Source of the DNA: Eledone cirrhosa
Lineage: Eukaryota
Direction: 5' to 3'
DNA length: 64,000 nt
Assembly: GCA_964016885.1 (NCBI GenBank)
Contig: OZ024766.1
Span: 10,168,001 to 10,232,000, forward strand
Both the position numbers and the translations under genes were made by a program. Of this stretch, positions 1,191 through 61,478 are shown one piece after another. The notes under the pieces were generated by a model. It ran no database searches. It was not told where the DNA came from and saw nothing but the letters and a program-made list of their open reading frames with translations. Each line of letters opens with the position of its first letter. Position 1 is the first letter of the stretch.

Positions 1191-1390
1191 AAGTTTAATA
1201 TAGAAATGGCTTCTACAGGACTAAAACTGTTTCATTCAAAAGAAATCATCAGGAAAGCTTTCCTGATGATTTCTTTTGAATGAAACAGTTTTAGTCCTGT
1301 AGAAGCCATTTCTATATTAAACTTGATGTTTACACTCTACTAATGTATTGAGTACCTTACTAACTGTGGTTGAGCCTGGGACTCGCACAC
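1191..1390. mobile_element. foldback Penelope-like pLTR element, family A (also 7390-7586, 40675-40875, 45613-45817; fragments 37205-37285, 62530-62665)
   Basis: Roughly 120-135 bp near-perfect palindrome containing a hammerhead, followed by a unique tail (actct...gtattgagtacctt) and flanked by (TA)n. Confidence 0.75.
1257..1306 (+). ncRNA. type I hammerhead ribozyme, family A (mirror copy on - strand about 1209-1258)
   Basis: gctttc-CTGATGA-tttc tttt gaat-GAAA-cag ttttagtc ctg-TA-gaagc. Confidence 0.75.
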
Positions 1391-2007
1391 ACACATATAT
1401 ATATATATATATATATGTATATATATGTATATATATATATGTGTATATATATATATATGTATATATATGTATATATATGTATATATATGTATATGTATAC
1501 ATATATATGTATATATATATATATATATATATATGTATATATATGTATATATATATTATATATATATATGTATATATATGTATATATATATTATATATAT
1601 ATATGTATATAATATATGTATATATATTATATATATATATGTATATATATGTATATATATATTATATATATATATGTATATATATGTATATATATATTAT
1701 ATATATATATGTATATATATGTATATATATATTATATATATATATGTATATATATTATATATGTATATATATTATATATATATATATGTATATATATTAT
1801 ATATGTATATATATTATATATGTATATATATTATATATATATATGTATATATATTATATATATATATGTATATATATTATATATATATATATATATGTAT
1901 ATATATTATATATATATATGTATATATATTATATATATATATATATATGTATATATATTATATATACTATATATATATATATATATATATTATATATATA
2001 TATATAT

Positions 2008-2735
2008 ATATTTATTAAAATAACAGATTAAAGTTTAAGCAAAGAATCGCTGCTTTCACCCTTAACGGGATCTTCTGAAACCAACAAAGTCAATCTGTAA
2101 ACGCAGAAGTGGATATTTAAAAAAACGTTGCAACCAGAGGAAGACAGGAAGACGATACTTTGTTTCGTGGAAACGTTCGCTGGCTAAGAACGGGAAAAAA
2201 CGAATAATACGTCATTAATAGGAGCGGTGGAAAACAATTACGCGCAAAGACAGAACCACGTTTATGGTATAAAAGAGGTCGTAGACTAATGTTCTCTTAG
2301 GTGGTGCATAGAGACGTTCTCTGGCAATGAACGGAAAAAACAAAGATAATACGTCATATGTGGAGCGTGGAGAACAATAGCACGCAAAGACAGAACCACG
2401 TTTATGGTATAAAAGAAGTCGTAGACTAATGTTCTCTTAGGTGGTGCATAGAGACGTTCTCTGGCAATGAAAGAAAAAAAAACGAAGATAATACGTCATA
2501 TGTGGAGCGTGGAGAACAATAGCACGCAAAGACAGAACCACGTTTATGGTATAATAGAGGTCGTAGTTCTGCGTTTACAGATTGACTTTGTTAGTTTCAG
2601 AAGATCCCGTTAAGGGTGAAAACAGCGATTCTTTGCTTAAACTTTAATCTGTTATTTTAATAAATATTTGCTCTACGGTTCTTATATATTTGATATATAT
2701 TTATCCTTATCGAGCCCTCTTTGGATTTTAGTCTT
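2008..2735. mobile_element. foldback element with ~100-bp inverted arms, internal ~124-bp tandem repeats and a variant hammerhead core
   Basis: Arms at 2008-2108 and 2567-2667. gttt-CAGAAGA-tccc gttaa gggt-GAAA...TT-aaac, with tail gctc...gagc. Confidence 0.65.
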
Positions 2736-4099
2736 CAAATTTATTATTATTACTATATATATATATATATATATATATATATATATTATATATAATTTAT
2801 ATATATATATATATTATATATAATATATATATATATATATATGTGTGTGTATATTATATATATATATATGTGTGTGTATATTATATATATATATATGTGT
2901 GTGTATATTATATATATATATGTGTGTGTATATTATATATATATATATATATATGTGTGTGTATATTATATATATATATATGTGTGTATATTATATATAT
3001 ATATATACATATATATGTGTGTATATTATATATATATATATATATATATATATATATATATATGTGTGTGTGTATATTATATATATATATATGTATATTA
3101 TATATATTATATATATATATATATATAAAACACCCTAACCTTTAAACCACATGCCTCCACATGTGGATGTACAATTAACCAATTTTATCTCGATCTAAAG
3201 TTAACCAATCATAATCTATTTTACAGTGAATCAATCATATCTTGATATACGGTTAACCTATCATATATTGATGTTTTCAAATATTTATATTTTTTCTCTT
3301 TAGTCCTCCACTAACGTTACTTTTCTCTCCCTCATTTTCCTGTTATTTTCTCGATTCTGTAGTCAGCTTATTGTGCCATTTCCTCGTCTCTTGAGTCACT
3401 GATTCCTCCAGTGACTAATGTCTTCACTACCCCGTTCATTCAAGTCCCTCGTTTTTCTGTGTTGTATCTCTCCCATTCTTCTGTTTCCTCGTTCTTCCAG
3501 TCCTTGATGTCTACACTACCCCATTTCTCCACTGCCTCATCTCTGTAATACCCTCATTACTCCAGTATCTCTCCCATCCACCCAGTTGCTTGTTCCTTTG
3601 AGTGCCAGCTGACATATTCAGTCATTCCTTACCCATATACATACCTCATTCCTCCAGGCTTTCATTCTTCCAATTTCTTGGTTGTTCCTCCACTAACTCA
3701 TTCCTCCACTACCCCATTCCTCCATTACCTCATTCCTCCACTGTTTTATTCATTCCTCCATTATTTTATTCATTCCTCTACTCTTTTATTCATTCCTCCA
3801 CTATTTTATTCATTCCTCCACTATTTTATTCATTCCTCCACAATTTTATTCATTCCTCCAGTGTCTCTCTGGTTCCTCCACTAACTCATTCCTCTAGACC
3901 TTCATTCCTCCAATGTCTCTCTCATTCCTCCAGTCTTTCTCATTCCTCTAGGCCTTCTTTCCTCCAATGTCTTTCTCGTTCCTCCACAACCTCATTTCTC
4001 CAGTGTCTCTTTCGTTCATCCACTACCTCATTCACCCAGACACTTATTCCTCCATGCTCTAACTCATTCCTCTAGGCCTTCCTTCTTCCAATTTCTCTC

Positions 4100-58264: not shown

Positions 58265-59420
58265 CTGTAATGCAAAGTATGGGTACATAAAAGATGTAGT
58301 GGGATCACAGGTAAACTTTCTAAAAACGTAGACTTTATATGTGGCCGATGCTCAGGTGCGATAAGTAGCAAGTGCCCACAGGATACTAGCCCCTTCTATT
58401 GCCCAGATGGTTCTATAGAAATAGTAGACAGCTTCCGTTACCTGGGTGACAGAATCAGCAGTGGTGGAGAGTGCTCTGAAAGTACAGTAGCCAGAGTCAG
58501 AACGGGATAGAAAAAGTTCAGAGAGCTTATACCGCTGTTGGCCACAAAGGGTTTCTCTCTAAAAATGAAAGGCAGATTGTATGATGCCTGTATACGAACA
58601 GCAATGCTACATGGCAGTGAGATATGGGCATTGCGTGCAGAGGACCTGCGTAGAGTGGAAAGGAACAAAGCATGCATGCTCCGTTGGATGTGTAATAGTA
58701 ACATATGTGAGCGGCAAAGCATAAATGAACTAAGTGAGAAATTAGGAATAAGAGGGATCAGATGCTGTTTACTCGAGAGAAGACTACATTGGTATGACCA
58801 CGTGATGCGCATGAAAGACGACAGCTGTATAAAAAAGTGCAGGGCAATCAAAATTGATGGTAGTTACGTAGTAGGTAGACCCAGAAAAACCTGGGACGGT
58901 CTGATAAATTCCAACCTTACACACTTGTACCTCTCTAAGACAATGTCACGGGACCGAGATCTTTGGCGCTACGCAGTAATACAGAAGACCCGCCTTGCCT
59001 AAGTACAAAGCGAAACCTAGTCAGTAGGCACCTGTTAACCAAATATACACCCCAATCCACTACCCCTACCCTATCCTCCCACTCCCACCAACACCGGCCC
59101 CTCTCTATAAAGTTGGTACCACAACATCCAGTCCAAATAAATGAGATAATGAGATCGAGATCGTGTAGGTGTCACGAGAAAAAAAACACACAGTCCACGC
59201 TGTAATGTGGCCGTGTAGGTAACACGGTAAAAAGTTCCCAGTTCCACACTGTAAACGTGGTTGGTGTTAGGAAGGGCATCCAGTCGTAGAAAACCTGCCA
59301 GACAGTCCTATATGAGCGAGACATGGTCACCCGACCAGCCTTGCCTCAAGTGGGACAACTCCCGTCTAACCCATGCTAGCGTGGAAATTGGACGTTAAAC
59401 GAGGATGATGATGATGATGA
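58265..59420 (+). mobile_element. RTE-type LINE 3' portion with ~400-bp 3'UTR (shorter copies at 17565, 38245, 42215, 47185, 59660 on +; 34895, 37650, 45910, 51780 on -)
   Basis: KGRLYDACIRTAMLHGSEIW...RRLHWYDHV...GRPRKTW and a (GAT)n tail; contains stop codons. Confidence 0.88.
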
Positions 59421-60528
59421 TGGTCTTATTTTAATGTACCATGGATTACGTTACTGATTACATAAGACAGTGTAACACAGTCTTCGTTCAATTTCTATGT
59501 ATTATATATTGTCAATTACGATTTTATTTGATGTATCATATCTACATGTATATATACCTGCGTATAATATCAATATACACACTACACATGCTAGCAGAAA
59601 ACCGATCAGAGGATGGTCTTTCTGCTAGTATATATATATATATATATATATATATATATTTGGTATGGACACGTGATGCGCATGAAAGTCGATAGCTGTA
59701 TAACAAAGTGCAGGGCAATAAAGATAGACGGTAGTCACGGAATAGGCAGACCTAGAAAAACCTGGGACGAGCTGATAAACTCCGACATCACACACTTACA
59801 CCTCTCCAAGACAATGTCACTGGACCGAGACCTTTGGCGGTACTCAGTAACAGAGAAGACCCGCCTTACCTAAATATATAGTAAAACCTACTCCAGCCAG
59901 TAGGCATCTCTAACAAAATACACCCCGTCCCACCACCCCCACCCCCACCCGATCCACACCACCCCGTTCTATGTAAAGTTATGTTGGTGCCGCGCCTTCG
60001 AGGCCGAAACAAATGAGATCGTGTAGGTGTCACGACAAAAAAACACACAGTCCACGCTGTAATGTGGCCGTGTAGGCAACACGGTAAAAACCTCCCAGAC
60101 CCACACTGTAAATGTGGTTGGTGTTAGGAAGGGCATCCAACTGTAGAAAACCTGCCAGACAGTCCTATGCGAGCAAGACAATCACTCTTGCCTCAAGTGG
60201 GACTACCCCCGTCCAAACCCATGCAAGCGTGGAACACGGACGTTAAACGTTGATGATGATGATGATGATGATGATATATGTGTGAAGAGGTTATATTTAA
60301 TTTGTTGGGATATAACAAGAAAAATATTTTTATAACTGATATAAAGCACTCAACAGTTTATTGGAGTAAATATACAATATATTAACAAATGGAAACTATA
60401 TTTATAAAACCATATTTATTTCATTATACATATTTCAAGGGCCACCAAGGTAAACTATGGTGCGCTTTCATCAGATAAAATATAATATAGGTTAGTTTTA
60501 TAAATAAATATTGACATACCTATATTAT

Positions 60529-60592
60529 ATTTTATCTGATGAAAGCGCACCATAGTTTACCTTGGTGGCCCATGAAATATGTATAATGAAAT
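60529..60592 (+). ncRNA. type I hammerhead ribozyme, family B2 (mirror copy on - strand 60418-60481)
   Basis: attttat-CTGATGA-aagcgcacca..tggtggcccat-GAAA-tatgta-TA-atgaaat. Confidence 0.75.
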
Positions 60593-61478
60593 AAATATGG
60601 TTTCCATTTGTTAATATATTATATATATATATATATATATATATATATATGTATGTATGTATGTATATATATATATGTATGTATGTATATATATATATGT
60701 ATGTATGTATATATATATATGTATGTATGTATATATATATATGTATGTATGTATGTATATATATATATGTATGTATATATATATGTATGTATATATATAT
60801 ATGTATGTATATATATATATATATATATATATATGTATGTATGTATATATATATGTATGTATGTATATATATATGTATGTATGTATATATATATATATGT
60901 ATGTATATATATATGTATGTATGTATATATATATATATGTATGTATGTATATATATATGTATGTATATATATATATATATATATATATATATATATATAT
61001 ATATATACACACACACATATATATATATATATATATATGCATATATATATATATATATATATATATATATATATATATATGCATATATATATATATATAT
61101 ATATGCATATATATATATATATATACATATATATATATATATACATATATATATATACATATATATATGTATATATATATATGTATGTATATATATATAT
61201 ATATATATATATATATATATATATATATATATGCATATATATATATATATATATATGCATATATATATATATATACATATATATATATATATATATATAT
61301 ATATATATATATACATATATATATATATATATATACATACATATATATATATACATATATATATGTATATATATATATGTATATATATATATGTATGTAT
61401 ATATATATATATATATATATATATATATATATATATATATATATAATGAGTATTTACATGTACCACCCACCTTTACAG

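Follow-up and report, generated by a model that had tools for sequence, protein, structure and literature searches.

The stretch of DNA analyzed here (the window) comprises 64,000 nucleotides of contig OZ024766.1 of Eledone cirrhosa, positions 10,168,001 to 10,232,000 of the forward strand; all coordinates below are counted from its first letter. Part of a PPIP5K gene lies on the plus strand, with 12 exon matches from 9669 to 55540 that cover residues 508-1076 of P0003. One of these exons shares 99% identity with a protein that falls into a 90% cluster with members from Octopus sinensis and Sepia pharaonis, so the host is a coleoid cephalopod. The window also holds 17 inverted repeats which, by their sequence features, are very probably 5'-truncated ends, i.e. 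pieces of the pseudo-long terminal repeat (pLTR), of several families of Penelope-like elements (PLEs). Elements located within 9669..55540 are intronic, and since the first exon seen is mid-protein, those before 9669 are probably intronic as well.

Inverted repeats at the PPIP5K locus

The original prediction had described these repeats as palindromes bounded by TA microsatellite. All 17 were found at, or a few bases from, the predicted positions (the one at 11826 aligns from 11829). A scan for foldback seeds gave 18 in the window compared to 0 in each of three block dinucleotide shuffles. The arms are 44-280 bp long with an identity of 89-100%; the value for 60375, 109/126, comes from an alignment extending into the flanks. 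We observed that arms within one insertion are 97-100% alike, compared to 78-100% (mostly 80-95%) between copies, and that in 8 of the 17 the two arms are of near-equal length.

The centers of eight repeats are very short, with a spacer of 0 nt at 1191, 8922, 11826 and 45613, of 1 nt at 7597 and 8449, and of 2 nt at 8749 and 40675, several of them at self-complementary hexamers. The self-complementary words seen at joints are AAGCTT, TCATGA, CAATTG and AATATT. The remaining spacers measure 5, 8, 9, 10, 15, 24, 25, 85 and 458 nt, the last being that of 2008.

The repeats fall into nine families (labels A-J). The window holds further copies of these families, either solo, tail-only or lopsided, which had not been listed in the original prediction. 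By hand-set boundaries, we counted 36 PLE-like pieces covering about 15% of the window. The 17 inverted repeats are as follows:

1191..1388, plus: family A palindrome; arms 1191-1257/1258-1324, center AAGCTT; hammerhead in both arms; tail at right
2008..2755, plus: family J inverted repeat; 458-nt spacer of ~140-nt tandem units; tail at right; no hammerhead
7390..7587, plus: family A palindrome; tail at right; tail-less arm ~5 nt longer; reference for read mapping
7597..7945, no strand: family C palindrome without visible tail; both arms keep the hammerhead core, with decayed GAAA
8448..8642, plus: family E palindrome; fold inside the ribozyme, 1-nt center; tail at right
8670..8905, minus: family H palindrome; tail at left; no hammerhead
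8920..9127, plus: family F palindrome; fold at GAAA; tail at right
11809..11916, plus: family E palindrome; center CAATTG; right arm interrupted by a SINE-like repeat (SINE, short interspersed element)
13785..13960, plus: family C palindrome; left arm interrupted by a SINE-like repeat; hammerhead at 13853
13982..14418, plus: family B palindrome; hammerhead in both arms; tail at right
14851..15290, plus: family D palindrome; tail at right; hammerhead-like cores inward, antisense to the tail
15570..16190, minus: family G palindrome, ~570 bp; hammerhead in both arms; tail at left
40672..40872, plus: family A palindrome; tail at right
45610..45818, plus: family A palindrome; center TCATGA; tail at right
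51378..51782, minus: family I palindrome; tail at left; no hammerhead
52386..52915, plus: inverted repeat related to family D; 85-nt spacer with one minus-strand hammerhead-like core; tail at right
60285..60620, minus: family B palindrome; tail at left; tailed copy 31 nt longer, compatible with foldback

The other copies are listed below:

37207..37287, minus: family A asymmetric insertion; last 29 nt of tail head-to-head with a tail-less arm, no overlap
41513..41700, minus: family F asymmetric insertion; 16-nt tail end head-to-head with a 175-nt tail-less arm
47760..47866, minus: family E asymmetric insertion; part of tail head-to-head with a tail-less arm, no overlap
50352..50588, plus: family B asymmetric insertion; ~150-nt inverted tail-less arm and tail only
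41362..41470, plus: family B mini-palindrome; ~10-nt arms and tail
39978..40185, minus: family F solo tail-less copy; hammerhead at 40081
17512..17562, plus: family E solo tail-less copy
23380..23690, plus: solo D-related copy with tail, then a family B tail-only copy
40570..40637, plus: family F tail-only copy
62239..62316, minus: family E tail-only copy
62500..62667, plus: family A solo copy; tail and native upstream sequence (seen in reads too); GAAA decayed
21640..22945, minus: two ~650-bp units in direct tandem (85% alike), arranged as in a retrozyme or a partial tandem; hammerhead at 22738
50716..51300, minus: ~510-bp unit, its ends identical over 75 bp in direct orientation, as in a pLTR-like partial tandem; descriptor match at 50967

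The elements cluster, being inserted beside each other's TA-rich ends (7390-7954, 8448-9127, 13785-14418). The direct tandem at 21640-22945 lies within the gene, on its antisense strand. Beyond the 17, a palindrome at 52950-53075, a distant relative of family E, adjoins the exon at 53141.

Hammerheads, tails and target sites

With a descriptor of the type I hammerhead, we found 18 matches in the window compared to 2 in 30 shuffles (0.07 per shuffle); 12 of the 18 are within eight palindromes and six are outside. Hammerhead here means a motif together with a predicted structure. The palindromes had been called ribozyme elements, which stands for the 8 of 17 that carry a complete type I hammerhead; just four (1191, 13985, 15622 and 60375) carry it in both arms. 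The other nine have no complete ribozyme: 7597, 14851 and 52387 show the CUGANGA core only, 8449, 11826 and 8922 kept only the GAAA/stem III half, and 2008, 8749 and 51487 lack the motif altogether. Families B, C, F and G, as well as 22738 and 46218, have the short, self-complementary stem III known from PLE hammerheads. In the copy at 62538, a compensatory change in stem I can be read from the sequence. Single hammerhead motifs at 18799, 27139 and 46218 belong to families met once in the window.

At the Rfam gathering thresholds no hammerhead was reported in the window, where the only hits were three tRNA-like SINE heads, and an Rfam E-value scan of 1100-16300 had no hammerhead among the matches listed, 150 of 180. 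The many sub-threshold matches to microRNA hairpins in that scan were rejected as generic.

A tail on one side, as originally predicted, was seen in 14 of the 17 inverted repeats, and tails on both sides in none. By the boundaries set in this analysis, the tails are about 57-109 nt long. The exceptions are 7597, where no tail was seen, and 11826 and 13791, each with one arm interrupted by a SINE-like repeat. The bounding by TA held up too: 17 of 18 tail-less ends and 14 of 14 tail ends (31 of 32 overall) are at most 12 nt from a TA run, compared to 23% of random positions. The same is true of the variable fold point with a fixed outer end, observed in families A (1191, 7390, 40675, 45613), B (13985, 60375), C and E. 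Each family has two fixed 3' ends, the arm end and the tail end, and variable 5' ends, with asymmetry occurring in both directions.

We also observed a motif, RCTC...GAGY, at the tail start in six of the nine families compared to an expectation of 0.14, with the motif itself being chosen post hoc. Since it is common to the hammerhead-less families H and J, these two can be tied to the hammerhead families. The motif often forms a hairpin and starts 4-15 nt into the tail (45752-45770, 60350-60367, 8570-8590, 9044-9068, 8719-8741). As judged from these sequences, it is a candidate cis signal for protein binding or for the start of reverse transcription (RT). In family D (14851-15290, 52386-52915) the tail is without RCTC...GAGY, and the hammerhead-like core has an extra base before stem II. 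A TATA-like word located ~30 nt upstream of the clustered fold points of family A (62501) was considered as a mark of the transcription start and rejected, as families B and C did not fit.

Raw reads and the probable assignment to Penelope-like elements

For read mapping we used as reference the stretch 7452-7770, which is non-palindromic and contains family A in sense, its tail and one arm of family C. One contig set and two restriction-site-associated DNA sequencing (RAD-seq) runs with the same species label, the runs being from another study, were mapped along with a contig set of another organism. The numbers of mapped records were 12034 contigs and 8365 and 8500 reads, and 57 contigs in the other organism. 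The joints reported come from the 15 listed of 28, and depth should not be read as copy number.

Among the contigs, 8 have a symmetric strand switch at 7456/7456, as do 9 and 7 read starts; a further symmetric switch was seen at 7456/7459. Asymmetric switches were found at 7456/7547, 7457/7527, 7463/7511 and 7473/7529. A direct-tandem joint leads from 7511 to 7456 (11 and 5 starts). Loose ends pass into TA at 7514 (the arm end; X22) and at 7575-7580 (the tail end). The question of palindromes in raw reads is thereby answered for families A and C and at family level, by strand-switch joints in independent raw Illumina reads; no listed record spans a whole locus. The contig and read counts allow a rough guess that the copy number may be 10^4-10^5. 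Exact-pattern searches of metagenome contigs for family A returned 0 loci.

Membership in the PLEs is inferred from five non-coding hallmarks, as no open reading frame (ORF) for a telomerase-like RT and a GIY-YIG endonuclease was found. The elements have a minimal type I hammerhead, a fixed 3' end with variable 5' truncation, and a head-to-head inverted copy; in addition, they have an optional tail at one end, partial direct tandems (pLTR) and a bias to (TA)n targets. Partial direct tandems of the pLTR type are represented by the read joint 7511 to 7456, by 21640-22945 and by 50716-51300. We consider it likely, if less so than PLE membership as such, that the full account also holds, with truncated PLE pLTR pieces residing in intronic (TA)n and two cDNAs likely joined head to head.

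According to PMC8557442, PLE insertions are truncated at the 5' end and have (TA)n targets; frequently a truncated copy in inverted orientation lies beside them, and one end bears a tail of 30-40 bp. The endonuclease-carrying (EN+) PLEs (Penelope/Poseidon, Neptune, Hydra, Naiad) share with our elements the 5' truncation, the head-to-head inverted copy, the optional one-sided tail, partial tandems, (TA)n targets, junction palindromes and the pLTR hammerhead (PMC8557442, PMC3846280). They differ in that here both copies are tiny, the whole insertion being a palindrome of 90-650 bp, and the tails are 57-109 nt rather than 30-40. Hammerheads are described as universal in Hydra and other canonical PLEs, being canonical in Hydra and other clades with C-terminal EN and absent in Naiads (PMC8557442). 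Cephalopod Naiads are old remnants without canonical hammerheads (PMC8557442), which disfavors Naiad for families A, B, F and G.

A curation guide counts inverted pLTRs and 3' extensions as routine (PMC8969392), and de novo very short PLE insertions in intronic microsatellites, with a median of 128 bp, were reported in Chlamydomonas (PMC9977147). In Octopus vulgaris 31 Penelope-like families were recently active (PMC13282606), and the O. vulgaris repeat library may hold the families described here already. The layout is already published as a PLE insertion signature, and PLE specialists would find the architecture as such unsurprising. Our searches of the open-access literature turned up neither a description of these cephalopod families nor one of PLE inversions arising by double priming. 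The original prediction was right in reading the elements as products of retrotransposition with a fixed 3' end, variable 5' truncation and (TA)n targets, and not as elements with terminal inverted repeats (TIRs); what it missed was the PLE signature.

Cervera and de la Pena (2014) described thousands of minimal hammerheads per genome with no detectable monomer cleavage (PMC4209133). Like the motifs in the window, those are of type I with a short palindromic stem III and form several variable families per genome; they are mostly single motifs ascribed to truncated PLEs, with pairs 100-700 bp apart on opposite strands in Schistosoma, and the stem III loop of family A is longer than theirs (PMC4209133). 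Such minimal PLE hammerheads are reported to be nearly inactive as monomers (PMC4209133, PMC11167929).

In Poseidon from Anolis (PAc; Frangieh 2024), AT-rich DNA is nicked, both strands are extended in vitro, and two RT start sites bound the tail; the RT/GIY-YIG protein uses uncleaved RNA as template (PMC11167929). PAc resembles our elements in its AT-rich target, two fixed 3' ends around the tail and an intact hammerhead. On the other hand, the PAc ORF starts in the hammerhead, and at the ATG codons of the family A hammerhead no open frame was seen; the PAc start site is an AC-rich stem-loop, and the common motif here is RCTC...GAGY (PMC11167929).

Non-LTR retrozymes, i.e. those without long terminal repeats, are likewise short hammerhead units without coding sequence, presumed to be mobilized by PLEs (10.64898/2026.07.22.740005), and their layout is met here at 21640-22945 and 50716-51300. 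They form direct tandems in that description, unlike the inverted pairs among our listed elements. We rejected a retrozyme assignment of the 17 listed elements, which are inverted pairs and not head-to-tail; even the tandem at 21640-22945 has a descriptor match in one of its two units.

Several points weigh against the assignment to PLEs. Neither RT nor GIY-YIG was among the Pfam matches of 26 ORF segments in the window, which comprised mariner domains, DUF6451 and two weak matches attributed to chance, so that a link to a PLE ORF is putative. The tails are longer than the published 30-40 bp, a figure that comes from other families and is descriptive rather than defining. Family C is without a visible tail, the hammerhead-like core of family D is antisense to the tail, and the CUGANGA core is absent in 6 of the 17.

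Formation of the palindromes and competing explanations

As the main route to the palindromes we put forward double priming, to which we give an even chance. The PLE protein would nick the AT-rich target, and each target strand would prime a cDNA at a start site of its own (the tail end for one, the inner site for the other), probably on a single RNA. The tail-primed cDNA could read through, by strand displacement, to the stop of the other and leave an equal-armed palindrome; stopping early, it would leave a tail stub joined to a non-overlapping inverted arm. The ends would be joined bluntly or at self-complementary words. The RT of PLEs is not known to have RNase H. Two primings on one RNA are favored as the simplest single account of the longer tail-less arms, the solo tail-less copies, the short centers and the arm identity. 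In four insertions (37207, 41513, 47760, 50352) the tail-less arm covers sequence absent from the tailed piece; at 37207 both pieces are of the 40675 subfamily (28/29 and 52/53).

How the tandem and inverted structures of PLEs are formed was named an open question by Craig (2021; PMC8557442). Palindromes at an inverted PLE junction were read as self-priming by Arkhipova (2013; PMC3846280), and this route, too, is already in print. The corresponding explanation of the PLE stubs, which we hold to be unlikely but still a competitor, is that the strand primed at the tail folds back onto itself, with resolution at the inner TA-rich site, with the short centers and the lopsided cases coming from later tip processing or deletion; this is close to the proposal of PMC3846280. 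Under foldback, the tail-less arm would never be longer than the tailed strand and the loop would be at least 3 nt. The near-identity of the arms within an insertion and their nearly equal lengths in 8 of 17 fit it, as do the palindromic junctions so read in PMC3846280. The best case is 60375, where the tailed copy is longer and owns a 25-nt loop with microhomology of 3-4 nt.

However, in the four lopsided insertions and in four read joints the inverted piece lies outside the tailed piece, solo tail-less copies exist, and centers of 0-1 nt cannot be priming loops; moreover, a PLE protein extends both strands in vitro from two start sites (PMC11167929). The original prediction had proposed a cDNA copied back on itself, which suits 60375 and would require later processing for the four lopsided insertions and the 0-1 nt centers. 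Foldback keeps its standing because later center deletion and arm-to-arm conversion could mimic the patterns of double priming.

Some observations tell against double priming: unstable palindromes that later lost sequence could account for the asymmetric cases, the arm identity could come from gene conversion, and 60375 and one contig joint fit foldback well. In addition, 150-nt reads are too short to reveal a tail of the inverted segment itself, and the tests in reads covered families A and C.

A further explanation, improbable in our view, is that the palindromes were selected in introns, with the antisense arm blocking self-cleavage of the host pre-mRNA. In folding models of five palindromes, the pairing probability of stem I is 0.0 in all five at full length, compared to 0.88-1.0 in two of the five single arms; the other three single arms do not fold as a hammerhead. 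Five of the six solo descriptor matches are antisense to the gene, and retrozymes are reported to be depleted in Xenopus introns (10.64898/2026.07.22.740005). On the other hand, this bias, with one of six being sense, falls short of significance (binomial P ~0.11), and the looser motifs 18799 and 27139 are also sense. A complete hammerhead without an antisense arm lies on the sense strand of the gene at 41598, within the 41513 insertion. Single PLE hammerheads had no detectable cleavage alone (PMC4209133, PMC11167929), and 9 of the 17 palindromes lack a complete ribozyme. The earlier claim that either strand contains a ribozyme with its antisense is strictly true in 4 of 17. As to silencing, the hairpin does abolish the hammerhead fold in the model (5 of 5), but a silencing function is unsupported, given 41598 and the near-inactive monomers. 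The antisense effect is, by these models, thermodynamically trivial and probably not needed; most likely the palindrome is a by-product of insertion and not a device for silencing the ribozyme.

Still more doubtful is the explanation that some or all of the repeats are miniature inverted-repeat transposable elements (MITEs) or foldback DNA transposons moved by a TA-targeting DDE transposase. Tc1/mariner MITEs are similarly inverted repeats in TA context, the window has a Mos1-type mariner transposase, 2008, 8749 and 51487 are without a hammerhead, and 7597 is without a tail. Yet such MITEs have fixed symmetric TIRs, no tail and no 5' truncation series, whereas here the ends are asymmetric because of the tail, the internal fold point varies, tail-only copies exist, and H and J have the tail motif in common with the hammerhead families. 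None of the 16 palindrome ends tested (of 17) aligned at a score of at least 16 to the TIRs of the window's two TIR elements, to which this comparison extended. These two, Tc1-like at ~20611-21224 and mariner at ~30972-34780, have symmetric ends. We consider the MITE explanation largely refuted for families A, B, E and F.

An assembly or long-read chimera artefact is highly improbable: palindromes and TA runs are known trouble spots of assembly and library foldbacks can mimic strand switches, but the arms do differ at a few sites, both ends are family-specific, and same-position strand switches occur in raw Illumina reads of two samples of another study as well as in short-read contigs, so that for A and C this explanation is refuted at family level.

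Among other features of the window, the Mos1-type mariner at 30972-34780 has TIRs and a split transposase ORF (33605-34568, minus strand), starts ~20 nt past an exon and holds a tandem array. Besides the Tc1-like TIR element (20611-21224), there is a tandem array at 27230-29660 with a unit resembling a Tc1-type end. SINEs with tRNA heads and RTE-like fragments of long interspersed elements (LINEs) are abundant (12521, 18952, 44159 and many more); they are likewise found in TA or CAT microsatellites, some of them within palindromes. A long acidic low-complexity ORF lies between PPIP5K exons (48330-49844, plus strand); it had no match in the three relatives tested and is possibly a lineage-specific exon. 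A short exon-like segment is directly duplicated past a long TA run (61425-61570 and 61575-61715). A 58-bp near-perfect hairpin (37546-37603) is located ~10 nt past a PPIP5K splice donor and could affect splicing or editing.

Palindromes of this kind can be mislabelled as MITEs or microRNA precursors. Because the families have two fixed 3' ends and short copies in great number, foldback and double priming can be told apart by counting, from the genome alone. A wider interpretation is speculative, and its parts are unlikely to hold all together. Miniature PLE insertions, numbering from tens of thousands to hundreds of thousands in cephalopod genomes, would record the integration step. In that step both strands would prime on one RNA and the tail-primed cDNA would displace the other, both running off the 5' end; run-off at the 5' end of one RNA would account for equal arms with variable fold points. 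The RCTC...GAGY tail hairpin would serve as a cis signal common to the families, and some of the families would be non-autonomous mini-elements. If this is true, introns would carry perfect double-stranded RNA hairpins every few kb, feeding the heavy ADAR editing of coleoids.

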